Shown here in pieces: positions 1,991 through 11,923 of a stretch of 64,000 nucleotides of DNA. Source of the DNA: a virus. Position numbers and translations under genes: made by a program. Within the stretch, counting starts at the first letter, position 1. The number at the start of each line of letters is the position of its first letter. Under the pieces are notes generated by a model. The model saw only the letters and a program-made list of their open reading frames with translations, did no database searches and was not told the origin of the DNA. Location of the stretch: positions 1-64,000 of IMG/VR virus record IMGVR_UViG_3300041956_000050. The stretch is one strand, 5' to 3'.

Positions 1991-2674
1991 ATGGGCACGT
2001 TCTTCCGGGGTCGGCACCCGATCACCTACGAGCGTGGCTTCGTCCAGGGCGCGGGACGGATTCTGTATGCGCCCGCCGGGTCTGCCTGGCCGGACGACAT
2101 CAGTGACATCATTGATGTCGATGACTCGGCTCCGACGGCCTACGACCTCAAGACACCGTGGGTCGAGATCGGCTTCACGAAGACCGGCATCAACATCACC
2201 CGCAACAACGCCGAGGAGGATTTCGACGTTGATCAGGTGAGCGGGTCGATTCGTCGCCGTCCGACCAACTGGGAGATGTCAGTCGGCACCCAGCTTGCCG
2301 AGGCAACACTGGAGACATTCCAGCTAGCCTGGGAGTTGGGACCGATCAACGACGCCACCGTGGCCTCACCGCAACTTGGCGAGCGGCACATGGGGCTGGG
2401 CGCTCCCACGTCGTACACGGAGCGGATGATCGCTGTGCTGTTCCAGTTCCCGCCCGAGCCTTCGGGCGCGAGTCCTGGGACGGCGGCGCTGATCCGTGCA
2501 TGGGTCTTCCGGCGCTGCCTGCGTGCGGCGCAGGAGTCGGGGCTGACCCTCCAGAAGACCGGCGAGCAGGTGTCGCTGCCAGTGCGGTGGAACGCACAGG
2601 CCGACACCAGTGTTCCCATCGATGAGCAGTTCGGGGAGATGTTCGAGCAGGTTCCCGACACTGTGACTCCGTAG
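1991..2674 (+). CDS. Major tail (tube) protein
   Basis: Motifs GAGRILYAP, EIGFTKTGINIT, DFDVDQ and QLAEATLE are typical of actinophage tail tube proteins; SD GAGGAGGTGA. Confidence 0.8.
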   Translation: MGTFFRGRHPITYERGFVQGAGRILYAPAGSAWPDDISDIIDVDDSAPTAYDLKTPWVEIGFTKTGINITRNNAEEDFDVDQVSGSIRRRPTNWEMSVGTQLAEATLETFQLAWELGPINDATVASPQLGERHMGLGAPTSYTERMIAVLFQFPPEPSGASPGTAALIRAWVFRRCLRAAQESGLTLQKTGEQVSLPVRWNAQADTSVPIDEQFGEMFEQVPDTVTP

Positions 2675-2681
2675 TCAACGG

Positions 2682-2797
2682 GCATGACAGACTGAGCAAA
2701 GGCCAGTCACATCAGCAAAGGCGATACTCATGCATACGACAACTAACACGACATCAGCAGGGCGAGGGTTCTGATAGGGCCTTCGCCCTGTCGTGTT
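2682..2797 (+). promoter_or_regulatory. Structured intergenic element: three-way junction plus terminator-like hairpin
   Basis: GCATGA/TCATGC closes two AGCAAAGGC hairpins. Next is hairpin CAGGGCGAGGGTTC/GGGCCTTCGCCCTG (2758-2790) followed by TCGTGTTTCTT. Confidence 0.6.
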
Positions 2798-2801
2798 TCT
2801 T

Positions 2802-3314
2802 ATGGCCAGAACCAAGTACGTAACCATCAAGCTTGAGGGAGAGGAGAAGATCTCGGCTGCTCTGCGCTCGCACGAAGAGCGTGGCTCGGCGCAGCTTCGA
2901 GAACTGGTTGATGATCTGGCCGATGTCGCGGGGATTGCGCTCATCGCGCACGTTCCTCGTGGCAGCAGTGACTACATCTTGGAGCATGTTGACCGAGATG
3001 GCCCGTTGTGGATGCCTGGTGGCGCAGGTGGCAGCGGTGAGTGGAAAGCCATCGTCGGCATCAAGAAGGGGCACAGCAGGCACCCGATCTACGTCGAGGA
3101 GGGCACCGGCATCTACGCCGGTCGCAGCGAGTGGGGCGGCAGGCCGATGCCGATGACCAAGGCGTTCCCCGAGTCCGATCCCGGTGGCCCTGCCTCCAAG
3201 ACCAAGTTCCGCCAGTACGTCAAGGGCCAGAGGCCGCAGAAGTACTTCTACATGACGTGGCGGACGCTCAACGCCGTCGTGGCAGCACGCATCGCAGCAC
3301 GGAAGATCCTGTAA
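2802..3314 (+). CDS. HK97 gp10-like tail completion protein
   Basis: Motifs HPIYVEEGTGIY and VKGQRPQKYF; lies in the tail module. Confidence 0.7.
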   Translation: MARTKYVTIKLEGEEKISAALRSHEERGSAQLRELVDDLADVAGIALIAHVPRGSSDYILEHVDRDGPLWMPGGAGGSGEWKAIVGIKKGHSRHPIYVEEGTGIYAGRSEWGGRPMPMTKAFPESDPGGPASKTKFRQYVKGQRPQKYFYMTWRTLNAVVAARIAARKIL

Positions 3315-3337
3315 CTGCTCATCGAAGGAGAGCAACA

Positions 3338-4027
3338 ATGGCTACACCTACCAAGCAAAGGCCCCCGTCGAAGATCCCGTCAGCGCAAGACGACGGGGCG
3401 ACTGACGAACAGGTCAAGGAGGCCGAGGCGGCGCTGGAGATCCTTGAGCCTCAGGTCGAGGCCAAGCGCTGGATCATTGGCAAGCCGCCCGAGCAGGGTG
3501 GCAAGGACACTGAGTACAGTGTTTACACACAGCAGGCGCTCGGATACATGGCCCGTAACCGGTTGTTCTCGCTGATCGGGCGCACGTTCTCGCTGGCGAT
3601 CAAGGCGACCGGTGGCAGTGTTGGCGGAATGGATGACATCTTCGGGTCAGGCGGTGGCACGCTGATCGAGCGAGGGCGTAGGCTCGGCTCACGCGACTTC
3701 CAAGATGCATCGTCGTTCTTCGCGCTCGCGATGGAACTGGTTGGCTACGCTCCGGACTTCCTGTCCGACTTCTATGCCATCATTCTTGACGTTCCGGTGG
3801 GAGAGCGCGGGTGGTTCCGCGAGGTCATCGAGCAGCCGCGCAGGCCCGACGATGACAAGTGGGGTCTGTCTGAGGACGACGGCATCCTGATGATCGAGAT
3901 CTTCATCGATCAGAACTACGAGGACATCCGTCGTTTTTTTACGGAGAGGCTTCCGAGGATCGGTCGCCGCGCTTCGCAGAGGGAACAGGAGCACAAGAAG
4001 GACCGCGAATCCGCGTCACAGCAGTAG
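3338..4027 (+). CDS. Tail assembly chaperone (short form)
   Basis: SD GAAGGAG before ATG 3338; lies between tail tube and tape measure; slippery T-TTT-TTT at 3934-3940. Confidence 0.75.
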   Translation: MATPTKQRPPSKIPSAQDDGATDEQVKEAEAALEILEPQVEAKRWIIGKPPEQGGKDTEYSVYTQQALGYMARNRLFSLIGRTFSLAIKATGGSVGGMDDIFGSGGGTLIERGRRLGSRDFQDASSFFALAMELVGYAPDFLSDFYAIILDVPVGERGWFREVIEQPRRPDDDKWGLSEDDGILMIEIFIDQNYEDIRRFFTERLPRIGRRASQREQEHKKDRESASQQ

Positions 4028-4533
4028 AGGTCGTAGAGAAGATCTGGTCAAACGGAGGAGGCGACAAGCTAGACGACATACTTAGATGGCCTGCCAAGCG
4101 TGTTGAAGGCTTCTACAAGGCCATCGTCACGCGGGAGGCTGTCGAGTCGATAGAGCAGCAGCGCCGGGACATGATCTCGGCGTGTTACTCGAATCCGAAC
4201 TGGGACGGCAAGGACAACGCAAGCAAGCGCGAGGAATACCTCAGAGACATCAACAGGCACTTCAATGAAGCAATCACCGCGATCTACTACCCCGAAGAAC
4301 ACAAGGCTCAGAAGGTGGACTGGAGCAACCCGTTCTTCGCGGCACACAAGCGCGAGATGTTGCGGACGAAGAAGCTGTTCGAGCAGGCCACCGGCCGCAC
4401 GTTGGGCGATGTCATCGAGGAAGAAGACAAGAGTGGTGTCGATCAGGTGCAGAACGGGAGCACCAACGGCCACGCTCGCGGCAGGGACTATGACCAGATC
4501 CCTGACGAAGACAAGATCCCGAGGAATACATGA
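3338..4533 (+). CDS. Tail assembly chaperone long form via programmed -1 frameshift
   Basis: A -1 slip at CGT TTT TTT ACG enters a frame (TAC GGA GAG...) that is open to TGA 4533 and contains the 4171..4533 ORF. Confidence 0.75.
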
Positions 4534-4555
4534 CAACAGTGAGAAAGGAGGTGAG

Positions 4556-4771
4556 ATGGTTACCGCGAAGTTCAAGGTCAGTCGCCGCAACGACATGGGT
4601 TGGGCGACCGAGGTCGAGTTGACTCCCGACTACGCCGATGGGCGCAACAAGGAGTGGGCTGAGGCCACCCCGGCAGGCATGTGCCGGATGACGATCAAGA
4701 ACGAACTCGCTGCGAAGCAGTTCAGGGAGAACCAGCCGGTCACTCTGACGTTCAGCTTCGATGACGAGTAG
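4556..4771 (+). CDS. Small hypothetical phage protein (71 aa)
   Basis: SD AAAGGAGGTGA; sequence MVTAKFKVS...NKEWAEATPAG... Confidence 0.7.
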   Translation: MVTAKFKVSRRNDMGWATEVELTPDYADGRNKEWAEATPAGMCRMTIKNELAAKQFRENQPVTLTFSFDDE

Positions 4772-4825: not shown

Positions 4826-7800
4826 ATGAATGAAGTCGAATACATTCTGAGGATCGTCCTCAAGGCTCGCGATGAACTGGCGACCGCGCTCAAGCGTGCG
4901 CGGGAGGAACTGCGGCTGTTTGCCAACGCTGCTGGCGATAACCAGAAGAAGATCGACGCATTCAACACGTCCGTCGAGAAGATGAACGTGAATATTGACA
5001 ACATCACGGACAAGTTCCGTGAATGGCGAGCCGTCATCCAAGGGACGAGTGATGGCACTGAGAAAGCACGCAAGTCCTTCGGTGATCTCGCCAAGGATGT
5101 TGACGAGGCAGGCAAGGCGACTAAGCGCTCGGCCGATGCGGCAGAGAAGCACGCCGTAGCGCAAGACAAACTTCTCAAGTCTGCTGACAAGCTCCGTAAC
5201 GAGTACCGGAAGCTGCACGAAACCGAGGGCGAGATCGACAAGGATCGCGAGTACTCGGTCTTCCGCCTGAAGGAAATCGGGGTGCAGCTAGAGTCGATCT
5301 CCAAGAAGGTCGCTGACCCGAAGATCCAGCGCTTCTACTTCAACTGGGCCAGAGACGCCAAGAGTGCTGCTAACTCTATCATCGCGGAGCAGAAGCGGAT
5401 CACTGCTGCTGAGGAAGAGGAAGCCAAAAAGCGCGTCGATGCTGAAGAAGCCGCGCTCAAGTTCGCGGAGAAGGCAGAGAAGGATTCTTTCGCACGGCGA
5501 GCAAAGGCGCACGAGAGCGCCGTCAAGACTTATAACAACATAGTCGCCAGAGGACTCCAGCAGCAGATCGCGGAGGAGGAAGCTGCTGCCAAGGAGAGCG
5601 TCAGGATCGAGACGGAGAAGGCTAGGCGCAAGGAGCAGATCAACCAGCGTGAGTCCGAGCGCTACCGGGCCTTTGTGAACCAACGGGCCGCGCTTCAGCG
5701 CCTTACTTCCGGCGATGCTGACTTCATTGATGTCGGCAGGGCGCGCGAAACCGTTACTGAGATGCGCAAGGTCGCGAATCAGTACAAGGACACCTCGAAG
5801 ACTTATCGCGAACTCAAGGACGGAGCTATTGCGCTTGAGCATGCGCTGCGCGGCGTCAATCGCCAGGGCGACGAGAGCAACCATGTCTTCAGCAGACTGT
5901 TCCGCGCGTTCAGGAACAATTCAGATAGCATCGCCACTCTTGATAATCAGCTTCGTGGCATGGGGCTGTTGCTGGTTGTCGGCTTCGCGCAGCAACTGAT
6001 CACAGTCCTCGGTGGCCTCGGTGGAGCATTCGTCTCGGTGGCATCGTCGGCAGCGATGGCAGGCGGCGCAATCGGTGGCATCTTTGTCGCTGGTATTGTC
6101 CAAGCGATCCCGGCCATCGGCCTTCTCGGTGCTGCTCTGGCTCGTGTCAAGAGTGTTATGGAGGCGGTGCAAGCTGCTCAGGCGGCGGATCAGCAGAACG
6201 CGACTCAAGCGGCGACGGCTCATCGTCGGGTGGCAGACGCGGCCGACACGTTGCGCGAGGCGCAGGAGCGGCTCAGCAAAGCGCGCAAGGATGCACGAGA
6301 GGAGATCGAGGATCTGATCGACGCTGAGCGCGAGGCTGAGCTAGCGGCAATAGGCGCGACGCTTTCTCAGCAGGAGGCTCAGGAAGCGCTTCGAGAAGCT
6401 GTCGCCAGTGGCGAAGGCGTAGCTCGCGCACAGCTTGGCGTGCTGGAGGCGAACGCAGCCAAGCAGGAGGCCATCGAGGATCGTCAAGATGCACGACGAA
6501 AGTCGCGTCAGGCACAACGCGGCGGCGTTGAAGCAATGCCGGGCGTCGTGCAGGCGAACCAGCAGCTTGAGACGGCCAAGCGCAATGCGCAGGAGGCAGC
6601 AGCCGGTACTGAGACGGCGGTGGCAAAGCTCAATTACCTGATCGCACAGTTGTCACCTGCTGAGCGACGGCTGTACGAAGCGGTCACGAACTTCCAGAAC
6701 CTGTTCAAGCAGGGCGTCTACCGCGAGATCACTGACAACCTTGTAAACAGCTTCGCCCGCAGCGTCGAGAAGATCACGAAGATCATCCAGATGCCGGAGG
6801 TTCTCGGCCTGGCCAAGCGCACGTCGAAGACGCTGGCGAGCACGATGAACAACGTCTTCGATTCGTTCACGACGAAGCCGATGCTCGACCAGTTCGTGCG
6901 GATCGGTGAAGCAGGCCGCAAGAACCTCAAGCCGCTTGGCGGAATCCTCACCGATGTTGGCAAGATTATTCTCAACATTGCTGAGGCGGCAGGCCCGTCG
7001 TTCCGGCGCTTCATAGGGTTCGTCGGGGATCTGGTCGGCAAGTTCCTCGATCTCACCGATAACCGCAAGGCGATGACGGCGTTCTTCGATGAGGGCGAGA
7101 AGCATCTTGAGGCGTGGATCGAACTGTTCGTGGCAGTCATCGATCTGTTCGCTGCTCTGACCGGCGCGGGTGGTGCTGAGTCCGGGCTGAAGACGATTGA
7201 AGACGCTACCAAGGCTATTGACGATCTAGCGGAGAAGGTCAGGGACAACCGCAAGGATGTTGCCAAGTTCTTCGAGGATGCTCGCGACATTGCATATGAA
7301 GTCGTCGGCGTTCTCGTTGAGATTGCGAAGGCGCTCGGGCGAACGTTCACGCCGGAGCGTGTCCACAGGTTCGCTGACTTCATCAAGAAGGTCATCATCC
7401 CGGCGCTTGAGAATGTGATCGACTTCTTGGGCCAGATCACCGACAAGCTTGTTGAGTTTGCTGACACGCCAATCGGCGGGGAGATCATCAAGGGTCTTGT
7501 CGCCTTTGTTGTCTTGCAGCGCATCTTGGGTGGCGTGCTCGGTTCGCTCAAGCTGATCACCACCTTCGTCGGTCCCATTGCGGAAGCGTTGATCAGCGTT
7601 GGAAGCAGCGCTGGCGCATGGGAGAAGATCGGCCAGGTGCTGCTCCGGTTCGGCAGGTTCGGTGGTCCGATTGCGATTGCGATTGGGCTTATCGTCCTCC
7701 TGCTGGACAAGCTCGGGCTGCTCGATGACGCCTGGGAAGCTGTCAAGAGTGGATTCAACGAGTTCTGGAAGCTCGTTCAGCCTTCGCTCAAGCAGTTCTT

Positions 7801-10800
7801 CAGGTCGATCAAGCAAGCGTGGGAAGCAGTCAGAGATGGTAAGGGTGCGTTCGGTCTGATACTCGACGTGCTCAAGCCGATCATGAAGGTGCTGATCGAC
7901 ATCGGCGGCATCTTCTTCCGTGTGTTCGGTCGTTTTCTCGGTCGCATCATCAGTGGTGCATTGGACATCCTCAGCGGCTTCATCGATGTTGTCATCGGAA
8001 TCCTGACAGGCGACTGGTCAAAGGCGTGGGAGGGTGCCAAGCGCATTGTCAGGGGATTCATCCGTGGCGCGACGGCGATCTTCCGTGCATTCCCGGAGTT
8101 CATTTGGGAGATCATCAAGAAGCTGCCTGGCCTGTTCCGCAAGCTCGTGCCGCTGATCAAGGATGCAGCGAAGGCGATCTTCCACGCCATTGTTGACTTC
8201 TTGGAGAAGCTCCCCGAGCGGATGAAAAAGCTTGGCAAGACTGTTGGCGAAGCTCTGATCGATGGCATCGTTGCGGCGATCAAGTCGGGCGCTTCACTTG
8301 CCAAGGATCTTGCCAATGCTCTGATCGACATCCTCAACAAGCTGCTACCGAACAAGATCCCGATCCCCGGCGCTCCGGATATCGATCTGCCCGACAATCC
8401 GATTCCGCATCTGGCTGAAGGTGGCCCGTCTGGCAAGGGTAGCTCCAGCGGCTTCCTGGCTGTCCTGCACCCGGATGAGCACATCTGGACAGCAGCGGAG
8501 GTGCGCGCAGCCGGTGGCCACGATGCAATGTTCGCGATGCGGCGCTACTACGGTGGCGGTGGCCAGGGCAGAGGTTCCTACAGGGATGGTGGTCAAGCTA
8601 CTTCTCCGTCAGGAGCGTTGACAGTTACGTTCATTGGCGAGGGCATGGAAGAGTTCACAGTGCTGTGGCGACAGTTCTGGAACGTCATCGTGCTGCTCGC
8701 CATCCAAGGCACCACTCGCGTCGAGCAGCAGTTCCGCGACATGCGTGCTGTCATCTCGCGGAATGTGAACCGGATGTACCGAGATGTCCGTGATGCGCTA
8801 GTCGCCATGGACCGCTCCTTCGAGCTTCGTGGCAAGAGGATTGTCGAGTCTTGGTCGGATACGTGGCTGTCGCTGATGAAGGTCACGCATCAGGGCCTGT
8901 TCTACATCGGCCATGAGACGAACCAGGGGCTGCGCGGCCTCGGTGAGAAGTCGATCAACTTCGGGTTCACGGAACCGAAGAAGAGTGATGGCAAGGCTGG
9001 TGGCGGCTGGATCGGGATGCAAGGCCAGCGCGGACAAGATCGCGGCCTCTATCCGCTCGGTGACGGCGAGGCGGTGCTGAACTGGCAGCACCAGAAGTAC
9101 GTCGAACCTGCCATGAATGCTTACTACGGTCATGGCTTGGCATCGATGTTCGACCGCGTGCATGGCTACCACGCGGGCATCGGTGGATCTGGCTACGCCT
9201 CCGGCCGTCCGCCGCAGTTCTCACCGATCCCCGGTTTCCCGATGGAGGAAGCCAACACGCGCATCATCCCGCTGCTCGTCCGGCTGATGAAGCAGTACAA
9301 GTTCATCCCGACCGATGTGTATGACCGCGACCGCAGCGCCGGTCACAAGTCGCCGGGGCACAATGTCACCGGTACTGCGCTCGATGCTGTTCCTGGCCCT
9401 GGTGGTAGCTGGGCATTGATTGAGGCGATGGGCCGCTGGGCAGTTGGCCAGGGAATGACTGTTGGCTATGGCGCTGGCGTTCCCGGCTCGCAGGCGTGGC
9501 CGGGACACGGATATGGCAACCATATTCACATCGAACTTGGCGGCGATCCGGGTGTTGCTGGCACGGTCTTGGAAACGGTCGCGAAGGTTGGCCGTCCGCT
9601 CATCACTGGCGGGGGCAAGCTCGCGGAGATGGTGCAGGCTGCCTTCGACATGGTGCTCAAGGCAGCCAATGCGGAACTGACTGCGACATTCGATCCTGTC
9701 AGCGGTACTACCAGCTTCAAGCTCGGGCCTGGTGGTGCAGCACAGAAGGTGTTCGACTTCTTCACTGCGCGTGGCCTGAGCGATGCGATTGCCGCTGGAT
9801 TCGTCGGCACGTTCCAGAAGGAGTCCAACTTCGTCACTACTGTTCAGAACGCTGCTGGCAGCGGCGCAACTGGACTGGCGCAGTGGCTCGGTGGTCGTCT
9901 GACAGCACTTCAGGCATTGCCCAACTGGACTAGCCTGGCAACGCAGTTGAACTACGTGTGGAAGGAGTTGCACAGCACGGAGTCAGCGGCGTTCTCAGCG
10001 ATCAAGGGTGCGAGCACGCCGGAAGAAGCGGCATATCTGATCGACAGCAGGTATGAGCGCTCTGACAATATTCTTTCGGCTCCGCAGTACGCGAGAGCAG
10101 CATACGAGCGCTTCCATCACACCGGCCCGCGCAAGCAGTACGCTGAGGGCGGCGAGATCCCCGGCCCGCTCGGTCAGGCGATCCCGATCCTGGCACACGC
10201 GCAGGAGTGGATCGTCAATCCGACGCAGCAGGCGCGGCTGGCAGCACTGACCGGACTCAGCCGCTACGGCTTGAAGTCGATGCTCGGCTTCTACGGTGGC
10301 AAGGGTAGTTACCAGGGAGGTGGTGCTCCTGGCGACACAGAGGTCACTAGGCTGTCAGACAAGGATGTCAAGGGGATTGATAATGCACGGCTGCGGCGGA
10401 TTATCGTCGCATTGCGTAATCTCGGAACACGGCTGGATAGGATGGCCGAGGCGATCCGTCCGGCTGAACGCTTTGTCGATGGACTTGACAAGACGATGGA
10501 CAATCTTGGGCGTCTGTCGCATCGCATCAACCGCGTGCGCGACAAGTCGGATCGCAGGACCGGCGTGCGCGGCTTCCTCGATGCGATGGAGAATCTGACT
10601 GGCGACACTGGCCTCTTTGCCAAGCTGCGCGAGTCGATTGAGCGCCGCACTGAGCGCTTTGGCAGGCGGTTGGTGCGAGATCGCTTCACTGTCAGCGGCC
10701 GTCGTGGTGCTCGTGTTGTCGCCAGGGCACAGGACGACGTGCAAGAGGCGCGAGCCGAACTTGCTGAGCAGCAGCGCCAGCGCACCGATCTGGTGGCTGA

Positions 10801-11923
10801 GCGGGATGCGCAGAGGCGCGCGCTCAATCAGGTTCGGCGTCAACAGAGGCGAAAGGGCCTCACCGATCTCCAGCGTAGGCGCTTGCAGGCGCAGGAGAAC
10901 TTGTTGCAGACGAGCCTTGACGAGTCGCGCCAGCGGATCGTTGACAACACTCAATCCATATTTGATGCACAGCAGAATGTTGCTGACGCGGTGGCGGCGC
11001 AGCAACAAGCCATCATTGATGCCCAAGAGAAGCTAGTCGAGTCCCTACGAGATCAGGTGGACAAGATCAATGCTGCTGCATCGCGCCGCCTCGGTGCCCT
11101 TGACTTGGTTACTCGCATGCATGATGCCCTGGGCACTATTGGCCTTAGTGGTGTCGTTGCTGCTGGAGGGACTGCGCTCTCGCGCAGCGGAGTCTTTACA
11201 GCGCGTGGCGCGGCCCTTGCGTCACAGCGCGCGCAGCTTCAAGGGGTGCTGGGGCGTGCTCGGGGTCAGAAGGGCGCTGAGGAGCTAATCGCTGAGCTTG
11301 AGGACCAGATCAACGAGCTTACTGTCGCGATTGCTGAGAACACGAAGGCTGCGTTCGACGCCAGGATAGAGGATGTCAATACTCGTGCGAGCACTGCGCT
11401 CACCTTCAACGACCTGAACAAGCAACTGATCGAGCTTGACGGCCAGATCGCCGGGAACACAGATCAGGCAGCGCTGTTGCTGAAGTCTCAGGAGCGACAG
11501 GCGATCTTGGTGCGGCAAGGCAACGAGTTGTCTGCATTGTTGGCGCAGGCTACCCCCGGTTCACAGACGTATCAGGATCTCCAGATCGCGGTGCTGGAGA
11601 ACACGATTGCGCAGAGACAGAACACCATTGCCACGAACGAACTCACTGGAGCCACGGCTTCGCCGCAGACATTCACCTCGACGGCGTGGTCGCGTTTCCG
11701 CGAGGCGATCTTCTCTGGTATGGGCCAGGTGCTCCCGCAGTACAACCCGACCAACCTGATGGGCGGCATCAACACTGGTGCTCAGATCATTCCGATGGGC
11801 GGTGGCATCAGCAGCAGCCGGATCAGTGGCGATACCAACATCAATCTTTACGAGTCCGGCCGTGATCCTGACCTGAACGAGATCTCGGCAGCGATTACAT
11901 TCGCCAGCAAGACAAGCCAATGA
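4826..11923 (+). CDS. Tape measure protein with M15-like peptidase and phage-tail-lysozyme domains
   Basis: 2365 aa with coiled coils and hydrophobic W/F repeats. Contains GHNVTGTALD...HIHIE (HxxxxxxD...HxH) and AAGFVGTFQKES...GLAQWLGGR. Confidence 0.92.
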   Translation: MNEVEYILRIVLKARDELATALKRAREELRLFANAAGDNQKKIDAFNTSVEKMNVNIDNITDKFREWRAVIQGTSDGTEKARKSFGDLAKDVDEAGKATKRSADAAEKHAVAQDKLLKSADKLRNEYRKLHETEGEIDKDREYSVFRLKEIGVQLESISKKVADPKIQRFYFNWARDAKSAANSIIAEQKRITAAEEEEAKKRVDAEEAALKFAEKAEKDSFARRAKAHESAVKTYNNIVARGLQQQIAEEEAAAKESVRIETEKARRKEQINQRESERYRAFVNQRAALQRLTSGDADFIDVGRARETVTEMRKVANQYKDTSKTYRELKDGAIALEHALRGVNRQGDESNHVFSRLFRAFRNNSDSIATLDNQLRGMGLLLVVGFAQQLITVLGGLGGAFVSVASSAAMAGGAIGGIFVAGIVQAIPAIGLLGAALARVKSVMEAVQAAQAADQQNATQAATAHRRVADAADTLREAQERLSKARKDAREEIEDLIDAEREAELAAIGATLSQQEAQEALREAVASGEGVARAQLGVLEANAAKQEAIEDRQDARRKSRQAQRGGVEAMPGVVQANQQLETAKRNAQEAAAGTETAVAKLNYLIAQLSPAERRLYEAVTNFQNLFKQGVYREITDNLVNSFARSVEKITKIIQMPEVLGLAKRTSKTLASTMNNVFDSFTTKPMLDQFVRIGEAGRKNLKPLGGILTDVGKIILNIAEAAGPSFRRFIGFVGDLVGKFLDLTDNRKAMTAFFDEGEKHLEAWIELFVAVIDLFAALTGAGGAESGLKTIEDATKAIDDLAEKVRDNRKDVAKFFEDARDIAYEVVGVLVEIAKALGRTFTPERVHRFADFIKKVIIPALENVIDFLGQITDKLVEFADTPIGGEIIKGLVAFVVLQRILGGVLGSLKLITTFVGPIAEALISVGSSAGAWEKIGQVLLRFGRFGGPIAIAIGLIVLLLDKLGLLDDAWEAVKSGFNEFWKLVQPSLKQFFRSIKQAWEAVRDGKGAFGLILDVLKPIMKVLIDIGGIFFRVFGRFLGRIISGALDILSGFIDVVIGILTGDWSKAWEGAKRIVRGFIRGATAIFRAFPEFIWEIIKKLPGLFRKLVPLIKDAAKAIFHAIVDFLEKLPERMKKLGKTVGEALIDGIVAAIKSGASLAKDLANALIDILNKLLPNKIPIPGAPDIDLPDNPIPHLAEGGPSGKGSSSGFLAVLHPDEHIWTAAEVRAAGGHDAMFAMRRYYGGGGQGRGSYRDGGQATSPSGALTVTFIGEGMEEFTVLWRQFWNVIVLLAIQGTTRVEQQFRDMRAVISRNVNRMYRDVRDALVAMDRSFELRGKRIVESWSDTWLSLMKVTHQGLFYIGHETNQGLRGLGEKSINFGFTEPKKSDGKAGGGWIGMQGQRGQDRGLYPLGDGEAVLNWQHQKYVEPAMNAYYGHGLASMFDRVHGYHAGIGGSGYASGRPPQFSPIPGFPMEEANTRIIPLLVRLMKQYKFIPTDVYDRDRSAGHKSPGHNVTGTALDAVPGPGGSWALIEAMGRWAVGQGMTVGYGAGVPGSQAWPGHGYGNHIHIELGGDPGVAGTVLETVAKVGRPLITGGGKLAEMVQAAFDMVLKAANAELTATFDPVSGTTSFKLGPGGAAQKVFDFFTARGLSDAIAAGFVGTFQKESNFVTTVQNAAGSGATGLAQWLGGRLTALQALPNWTSLATQLNYVWKELHSTESAAFSAIKGASTPEEAAYLIDSRYERSDNILSAPQYARAAYERFHHTGPRKQYAEGGEIPGPLGQAIPILAHAQEWIVNPTQQARLAALTGLSRYGLKSMLGFYGGKGSYQGGGAPGDTEVTRLSDKDVKGIDNARLRRIIVALRNLGTRLDRMAEAIRPAERFVDGLDKTMDNLGRLSHRINRVRDKSDRRTGVRGFLDAMENLTGDTGLFAKLRESIERRTERFGRRLVRDRFTVSGRRGARVVARAQDDVQEARAELAEQQRQRTDLVAERDAQRRALNQVRRQQRRKGLTDLQRRRLQAQENLLQTSLDESRQRIVDNTQSIFDAQQNVADAVAAQQQAIIDAQEKLVESLRDQVDKINAAASRRLGALDLVTRMHDALGTIGLSGVVAAGGTALSRSGVFTARGAALASQRAQLQGVLGRARGQKGAEELIAELEDQINELTVAIAENTKAAFDARIEDVNTRASTALTFNDLNKQLIELDGQIAGNTDQAALLLKSQERQAILVRQGNELSALLAQATPGSQTYQDLQIAVLENTIAQRQNTIATNELTGATASPQTFTSTAWSRFREAIFSGMGQVLPQYNPTNLMGGINTGAQIIPMGGGISSSRISGDTNINLYESGRDPDLNEISAAITFASKTSQ

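Follow-up and report, generated by a model that had tools for sequence, protein, structure and literature searches.

Among described systems, the coat operator of MS2 is the closest in shape to the hairpins that we report here. The operator loop in MS2 and the leviviruses is A-N-Y-A, with adenines at -4 and -7 and a pyrimidine at -5. Our hairpins, from the tail genes of an uncultured phage, have the same geometry (a stem, a single bulged A, two base pairs, and a 4-nt loop), and the pairs that flank the bulge in one of them (H1) covary. A preliminary description of this DNA, made from its letters, had noticed this geometry in twin hairpins (H1 and H2); it is real, and it is the feature that is conserved across relatives. 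Another likeness to MS2 is that our third hairpin (H3) overlaps a translation-initiation region, and by the same logic, an RNA hairpin in a structural module would shut off a low-copy gene. But instead of A-N-Y-A, our loops read AAAG or GAAG, or in two relatives ACAG or AGAG; H3 covers the SD rather than the start codon; and the hairpin occurs three times, twice in a 3' UTR, in a tailed phage with dsDNA. Also, the Levivirus coat family (PF01819) had no match at E <= 1 in the 108-kb phage record. Because the loop consensus, the position, and the coat protein of MS2 are absent, the likeness is in geometry only and is not membership.

The nearest functional analogy is CsrA/RsmE (the BS1 and BS2 sites of the Bacillus hag leader; the RsmZ and CsrB sponges). 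These sites are also short hairpins with a purine-rich G-G loop motif, and there too, one site on the SD represses while clustered sites elsewhere are a possible sink. In Bacillus, CsrA couples the translation of a filament subunit to its assembly. But the core of a CsrA site is GGA. Here, H1 and H2 have GGC or GGG, with a third base that is paired and covaries; GGA is present only in H3 and in the H1 of two relatives (L014 and L015). In T4 (gp32, gp43, and RegA) and P22 (scaffolding protein), excess or unassembled phage protein represses at an mRNA operator. Those operators are unstructured, pseudoknotted, or undefined, and none of them is a triplicated bulged-A tetraloop hairpin. We found no homologues of CsrA, the Levivirus coat, or RegA in the phage genome.

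Two antitermination elements are also worth comparing. Lambda boxB has a 5-bp stem and a 5-nt GNRA-like loop with no bulge, and it is accompanied by boxA. In our hairpins, by contrast, the bulged A is obligatory and the loop has 4 nt, of which the last is G, and no boxA-like conserved element was noted in the alignment of relatives (A2). The put RNA of HK022 is about 70 nt long, with two stem-loops, and acts in cis on RNA polymerase; our locus, which has two adjacent stem-loops and matched no Rfam model, may or may not belong with it.

Long-tailed phages need tube subunits in the hundreds but only a few copies of the chaperone, tape measure, and completion proteins. To our knowledge, little has been described of how this ratio is set, beyond terminators and the G/GT frameshift. 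Intrinsic terminators, with a G+C-rich stem-loop and a tail rich in T, follow the tube gene in many siphophages, as one appears to do at our locus; examples are the V-G junction of lambda, Rhodococcus phage NiceHouse, and Streptomyces phage Navo, and such a terminator presumably sets the tube-to-chaperone ratio. In those phages, the terminator stands alone. Here, two conserved, sequence-specific hairpins stand ahead of the terminator, the SD of the chaperone gene has a matching hairpin of its own, and a gp10-like gene lies between the tube and chaperone genes. NiceHouse and Navo are cultured distant relatives of our phage and have only a plain terminator at this junction, so the hairpins look like an added layer.

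IMG/VR intergenic regions, which we also drew on, are the source of a catalogue of 8495 anonymous structured-RNA candidates with no function assigned (PMC10690425, 2023). It includes 1241 terminator-containing candidates, and it also lists 879 candidates just upstream of genes with known domains. This catalogue may contain our hairpin motif.

We analyzed the first 64 kb (the window) of IMG/VR record IMGVR_UViG_3300041956_000050, which is 108,063 bp long and is rated 96% complete. The genome has a G+C content of about 60%, and its + strand carries nearly all of the genes. The phage group that bears the hairpins consists of uncultured soil phages of about 108 kb. Table 1 lists the features of the locus.

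The tube protein matches Pfam family PF25681 (Phage_TTP_17) at 30.4 bits (the cut-off is 27) and PHROG 476 (major tail protein). By tblastn, it has distant matches to annotated major tail proteins from phages of Rhodococcus, Streptomyces, Microbacterium, and Bacillus, and these matches suggest a host among Gram-positive bacteria, probably an actinobacterium. The locus has no blastn matches among cultured phages and gpB has no tblastn matches there, and a search of genome contigs with the gpB profile gave no prophage or host clue.

The next gene, gpA, begins after a gap of 127 nt, which holds H1, H2, and the terminator. gpA has 26 homologues, none of them with a name, and no match in Pfam. We classify it as probably HK97 gp10-like from the ESM Atlas, the sole basis for this assignment, where it lies beside HK97-gp10_like clusters (score 0.96, TM 0.64-0.68). 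The AF2 model of gpA is poor (pLDDT 60.6). The tape measure gene is recognized from its size and position. A tape measure of 2365 aa would imply a very long tail, so that the tube protein would be needed in far greater amounts than the products of the genes downstream.

Table 1. Features of the tail locus (coordinates in the window)
Feature	Position	Strand	Details
Tail tube (major tail) protein gene	1991-2674	+	227 aa; stop TAG 2672-2674
Three-way junction	2682-2733	+	Closing stem 2682-2687/2728-2733 around H1 and H2; 2-nt linkers
H1	2690-2708	+	5 bp, bulged A 2695, 2 bp GC/GC, loop AAAG
H2	2711-2725	+	3 bp, bulged A 2714, 2 bp GC/GC, loop AAAG
Possible 14-codon short ORF	2730-2774	+	ATG 8 nt past the AAAGG of H2; ends in terminator loop; doubtful
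Intrinsic-terminator-type hairpin	2745-2797	+	9-bp extension 2745-2753/2789-2797, 6-nt bulge, 13-bp core
gpA, probably HK97 gp10-like tail/neck component	2802-3314	+	170 aa; no SD in the window
H3	3316-3334	+	5 bp, bulged A 3321, 2 bp TC/GA, loop GAAG
gpB	3338-4027	+	229 aa; upstream of the tape measure gene
-1 frame across the gpB stop, putative GT frameshift extension	3874-4533	+	No ATG, GTG, or TTG before 4171
Tape measure protein gene	4826-11923	+	2365 aa; from the ORF list

A few other features of the neighborhood can be mentioned here. The stop codon of the tube gene is TAG in the window and in all relatives but one (which has TAATAA), and a conserved CAACA comes next. An extended tube protein, made by read-through or frameshifting, was considered and ruled out, as the zero frame stops again 6 codons past the TAG. 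Between the chaperone region and the tape measure gene lies a small gene of about 70 aa (about 4559-4771); it corresponds to the C-terminal portion of ORF 4265-4771, where the translation looks like protein, and its ATG is preceded by a strong SD-like run. In two relatives, an additional gene has been inserted precisely at the boundary of the terminator and gpA (L002, at about 3815-3935, and L003, from about 3830 on). The insert in L002 has a tandem TTGACA-containing repeat ahead of it and looks like a moron with its own promoter. Finally, L003 and L004 have identical H1 and H2 but different terminators and downstream genes, which points to a mosaic junction right at the terminator.

Hairpins and terminator after the tube gene

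The preliminary description had drawn H1 and H2 within a symmetric three-way junction, with a closing stem and linkers, and all of these elements are present in the window. When we folded positions 2682-2733 (52 nt) with RNAfold, this junction was both the MFE and the centroid structure, at -15.3 kcal/mol (z = -2.76; 3 of 200 shuffled sequences were as good). In a longer segment (2670-2810), the junction formed together with a long terminator hairpin, at -53.2 kcal/mol (z = -4.15; none of 200 shuffles was as good). By itself, H2 reaches only -0.8 kcal/mol.

All three copies of the hairpin share a stem, a single bulged A, two base pairs (with a C-G pair closing the loop), and a 4-nt loop (AAAG, GAAG, ACAG, or AGAG). 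They span 15-29 nt, and the unpaired letters are nearly fixed. The preliminary description had suggested that this might be an undescribed phage RNA motif. In agreement with this, a cmscan of positions 2300-3200 against Rfam 15 (E <= 10) returned only noise from miRNA and lncRNA models, with E = 6.5 or worse and best scores of 12-16 bits, as compared to gathering thresholds of 50-87.

We identified relatives by homology of the tube protein, which is independent of the RNA, in IMG/VR and the JGI metagenomes. This gave about 20 distinct syntenic loci with tube-protein identities of 56-88%; about 100 further contigs, known through gpB homologues, are outside this set. In these roughly 20 distinct relatives, the three hairpins and the terminator are all retained in synteny. 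As an unbiased count, both H1 and H2 were found in 15 of 15 distinct relatives at 78% tube-protein identity or above, and H1 was found in all relatives down to 63%. Relatives more distant than this 78% have altered hairpins or only H1, and the most distant ones (56-61% identity) keep a bulged-A hairpin in altered form. In some of these, the bulge is 3 bp from the loop, and the loops there include ACAG, AGAG, and AUUAG. All of the AAAG, GAAG, ACAG, and AGAG loops end in G and have A as their third base.

The stems of these hairpins covary. A gap-free alignment of H1 from 17 syntenic sequences has 93.4% of its cells in pairs, and both sides have changed in 7 of the 8 pairs. None of 500 shuffles reached the covariation score, and slid registers came nowhere near it. 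The lower stem of H1 differs in nearly every lineage while the bulged A and the loop are constant. The two apical pairs alternate among GC/GC, CC/GG, and TC/GA, and the base after AAAGG covaries with its partner instead of being a fixed SD letter. The preliminary description had staked its reading on the AGCAAAGGC core and the pairings not being lost from relatives, and both are kept. A caveat is that the alignments used for counting pairs were anchored with a regular expression that fixes five apex letters (A, C, A, G, and G), so the invariance of those five letters within the alignments is partly due to ascertainment; the covariation of the stems and the synteny are unaffected by this anchoring. 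Also, the G.U pairs in the hairpins are found on the + strand only (they would read as A.C mismatches on the other strand), which implies that the structure belongs to the sense RNA. Because H1, H2, and the terminator recur at one place with compensatory changes in about 20 relatives, we take the predicted structure to be beyond chance.

The apex of H2, A-GC-RAAG-GC, is identical in all 16 of the syntenic sequences that have H2. Its lower stem is 73% paired, in a variable register. Although the three-way junction folds in the window, as the preliminary description had it, the closing stem is found only there and in one relative (L010). In the other relatives, the 3' strand of this stem (CRTGCAG) pairs with a linker of 10-12 nt between H1 and H2, which has been lost from the window. 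H2 then sits on its own extended stem and abuts H1 (0-1 nt apart). Two tandem, stackable hairpins thus make up the conserved architecture, of which the window is a topological variant.

We then examined the terminator. The core of the hairpin is G+C-rich (2760-2772/2776-2788), and a T-rich tail reaches to position 2801. A terminator scan also reported it (2757-2791; 16 pairs, 9 of them G-C; tail CGTGTTTCTT). With RNAalifold on 17 relatives, we obtained 18 consensus pairs, 8 of which have compensatory double changes, and the covarying part includes the extension that ends just ahead of the next start codon. We predict that the element at 2745-2797 is a Rho-independent terminator. The G.U-containing hairpin and extension of the preliminary description are thus present, with a 13-bp core and a 9-bp extension, and the covariation that it had proposed to look for in homologous intergenic regions was found in both H1 and the terminator. 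Its placement of the element at the step-down from tail-tube protein to low-copy tail genes also fits, since the hairpins adjoin a conserved terminator. The idea that this hairpin masks the next start region fared worse. The ATG at 2802 is unpaired and lies 4 nt beyond the terminator extension; it has no SD to mask, and several relatives have an exposed SD at the start of gpA.

Two other pairings around the terminator were noticed. The loops (AAAGG or GAAGG) could pair with CCTTC in the 3' arm of the terminator, but we rejected this pairing because distant relatives alter CCTTC while the loops stay unchanged. In four relatives (L005, L006, L012, and L017), a CAGC or GAGC on the 3' side of H2 can pair with codons 2-3 of gpA (GCTG or GCTC). 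Such a long-range stem would have the terminator inside it and would reach the start of gpA. L005 and L006 differ by one apparent compensatory change in this pairing, which is weak evidence for it.

A third hairpin at the start of gpB

H3, which the preliminary description had missed, is a third copy of the hairpin and lies just ahead of gpB. The SD of gpB (GAAGGAG, 3324-3330) is inside the loop and the 3' arm of H3, and the ATG at 3338 is 3 nt past the stem. H3 forms in the MFE structure in its natural context; its stability is only -4.4 to -7 kcal/mol. In relatives with the canonical form of H3, it covers the SD and ends 2-8 nt ahead of the gpB ATG. So the clearest translational target at this locus is the gene at 3338 rather than the one at 2802.

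In relatives, the usual form of H3 is GCTC-A-TC-AAAG-GA-GAGC. Compensatory versions of its lower stem include TGACTC/GAGTCA, GCCC/GGGC, and GGATC/GATCC, and two relatives have a variant with a 3-bp apex. H3 persists, with compensatory changes, down to 56-63% tube-protein identity. Among 12 sequences, 4 pairs have double changes, and none of 500 shuffles reached the score. In L014 and L015, the apex of H1 (A-TC-AAAG-GA) is the same as the apex of H3, letter for letter, and this ties the three sites together. On the other hand, the SD sequence itself could supply part of the likeness of H3 to H1 and H2 (AAAGGAG versus AAAGG).

What does gpB encode? It lies between the genes for the tube protein and the tape measure protein, and a -1 frame extends its 3' end, as in the G/GT architecture of tail assembly chaperones. 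The -1 frame contains no ATG, GTG, or TTG before position 4171, so about 100 codons are open without a possible start. Equivalent -1 overlaps, with extensions of 440-520 nt, are present in three relatives (L002, L004, and L006). We did not identify a canonical slippery heptamer near 3980-4027. gpB has 96 homologues, mostly on contigs of about 105-115 kb. Neither the gpA family nor the gpB family has matches among PDB sequence profiles or in Pfam. The AF2 model of gpB is good (pLDDT 82.6), but comparison to the PDB with Foldseek gave no matches at E <= 0.001. A wide search with VIA peaked at Z = 3.7 (YqbN), a mere hint of a chaperone fold, and the likeness of gpB to TAC families is weak (fold and feature hints). 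Given the conserved overlap of frames and these weak hints, we regard gpB as most likely being the tail assembly chaperone G, with GT made by frameshifting, an assignment from architecture and not from family membership.

Possible functions of the hairpins

Judging from the sequences, the locus is a real, conserved, and apparently undescribed cis-regulatory RNA module, made up of putative operator hairpins and a terminator. What was observed in the preliminary description is thereby confirmed, and its interpretation is partly supported. That interpretation included a bound protein. As there, binding by a protein is inferred; we identified no RNA-binding protein, and neither gpA nor gpB matched an RNA-binding family or fold.

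Our tentative proposal, to which we give a probability of roughly 45%, is that H1, H2, and H3 are operators of one sequence-specific RNA-binding factor, encoded by either the phage or the host. At H3, the factor would block access by the 30S subunit and thereby repress translation of the chaperone (G/GT). At H1 and H2, it could be retained on the abundant, terminated tube mRNA, which would serve as a sink or sensor, or it could aid termination or the stability of the 3' end. The hairpins and the terminator would together give a large step-down, from the tube protein (hundreds per virion) to the gp10-like protein, the chaperone, and the tape measure (few copies each). Two features would be expected if a factor in trans recognized the hairpins. 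First, changes accumulate in the stems, whereas the bulged A and the loop letters are near-fixed. Second, the loops are outside the thermodynamically special tetraloop classes, and H2 has little stability of its own.

The alternative that survives best, though we consider it unlikely, is that the hairpins act only in cis. H1 and H2 would add to the barrier at the 3' end of the abundant tube mRNA or would help its terminator to fold, and H3 would be a simple occluder of the SD that damps expression of the chaperone; their likeness would come from duplication and from the common SD-like AAAGG. Much at the locus is compatible with this, as a terminator after the tube gene is an ordinary arrangement, the SD is truly buried by H3, and the core of H3 is largely the SD itself. 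But if only pairing mattered, it would be hard to see why drift is confined to the stems and spares the bulged A and the loop letters. Furthermore, H2, which is nearly unstable alone, and H3, at only -4.4 to -7 kcal/mol, would make a poor barrier and a poor occluder, and the base after AAAGG in H1 follows its partner instead of being held as an SD letter.

If the hairpins are operators of one factor, as we propose, then what binds them? As speculation, the candidates are free tube protein or the chaperone itself, which would be autoregulation. The chaperone is a candidate because gpB begins, in every relative, with a disordered and basic stretch of roughly 35 residues. These ideas can be combined in a feedback circuit, in which one protein (via the N-terminal tail of the chaperone, or as unpolymerized tube protein) binds the hairpin and represses the chaperone at H3 while H1 and H2 on the tube mRNA act as a high-affinity sink. 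We consider the full circuit unlikely. If it were true, synthesis of the chaperone would track the level of tube mRNA or the state of assembly, and this would be the first circuit of an RNA operator and an mRNA sponge to be described for tail morphogenesis.

Another scenario involves the short ORF that begins after H2. H2 would be its ribosome-binding site, and translation would melt the 5' arm of the terminator and lead to read-through; in many relatives, the ribosomes would stop at the gpA start and re-initiate on this gene, which often lacks an SD. The layout of the ORF is regular: an ATG or GTG lies 7-9 nt past H2 in 17 of 17 sequences, even where unpaired; the distance from the start codon to the terminator is 27 nt in 15 of the 17; all 17 frames extend into the terminator arm without a stop (if the in-frame GTG is taken for L006); and the stop is within about 10 nt of the gpA ATG in 11. 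Yet we doubt that the ORF is translated, and leader-peptide attenuation or coupling, with or without re-initiation, seems quite improbable to us. A second frame is also open in 15 of the 17 sequences because the region is T-poor. The frame of the window is displaced by 4 nt from that of the others and ends in the terminator loop, where 4 other sequences have their stop too. The peptide is no more conserved than the terminator stem would impose, AAAGGC is a weak SD, and H1 has no start codon after it.

It is very unlikely that the twin hairpins are an antitermination site, which would act on RNA polymerase as put does or through an N-like factor as in lambda nut/boxB, and would allow read-through of this terminator and of later ones in the tail operon. 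An element that always defeated the adjacent terminator would make the conservation of that terminator pointless, the hairpins fit neither boxB nor any Rfam model, and H3 at an SD would be left unexplained. These objections outweigh the purine-rich loops and the presence of two adjacent, coaxially stackable hairpins directly upstream of a terminator. The least probable explanation is that processing releases an sRNA from the 3' UTR (H1, H2, the CA-rich linker, and the terminator) that acts in trans or sponges a host factor. The parts do look like those of a 3'-UTR-derived sRNA (hairpins, then a single-stranded linker rich in A and C, and a terminator whose tail is rich in U), but we found no conserved complementary target, and in distant relatives the complementarity of the loops to the terminator shows no covariation. 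In addition, the hosts, which are likely Gram-positive or actinobacterial, argue against Hfq-type biology, and H3 is again unexplained.

The locus is more interesting than the description of a single site had suggested, because the same type of hairpin recurs on, and would also gate, the ribosome-binding site of the chaperone gene. H3 offers an obvious read-out (occlusion of the chaperone SD), and the element is compact and testable. If a specific binder exists, then it would be a new RNA-protein pair, with potential as an orthogonal tool for tagging or repression like those from MS2 and PP7, and it would add a new regulatory layer to tail assembly. If no binder exists, then the hairpins would be a clean case of a clade-specific addition to an ordinary post-tube terminator.

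Copies of the hairpin elsewhere

A regular expression for the apex and at least 3 flanking pairs had 5 matches on the two strands of the 108-kb genome, as compared to 2.4 +/- 1.5 in shuffled sequences. Three of the 5 are H1, H2, and H3, which lie within 650 nt of each other, all on the + strand and all intergenic. We also used a covariance model of the single hairpin (R1). R1 was trained on these syntenic sites, so their high scores in the window (27.6 bits for H1, 24 for H3, and 16.5 for H2) are by construction; the next-best site in the window scored 13 bits. Across five whole phage genomes (the window's and four related ones), only the syntenic sites scored above 18 bits, and the R1 search of these genomes found no further convincing copy. 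By these searches, the motif is private to the tail junction in these phages.

The exact 9-mer AGCAAAGGC also occurs at 3354 and 5500. We rejected both of these sites, as they are coding, fold unlike H1 and H2, and are not conserved. With one mismatch allowed, the 9-mer had 17 matches, versus 13.8 expected.

Exact 15-mers for H2 and H3 had at least 119 matches each in IMG/VR. Among the matches listed, genes for the tube protein, gpA, or gpB are confined to contigs from this clade, and the other listed contigs are therefore probably chance matches. One of these chance matches is in an unrelated phage with 44% G+C (L224; IMGVR_UViG_3300020200_001870), which has four near-identical 29-nt hairpins or palindromes on the minus strand of the locus (3953-3981, 3175-3203, 2910-2938, and 2106-2134). 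Each of these has a 10-bp stem, a bulged A, CC/GG pairs, and the loop GAAG, with the same apex geometry as H1. As the four copies are near-identical, there is no covariation among them. Every copy follows a G-rich terminator hairpin and lies ahead of the SD of a small gene. This hairpin may be a DNA operator or promoter module, or it may be a sign that the hairpin type is spread more widely.
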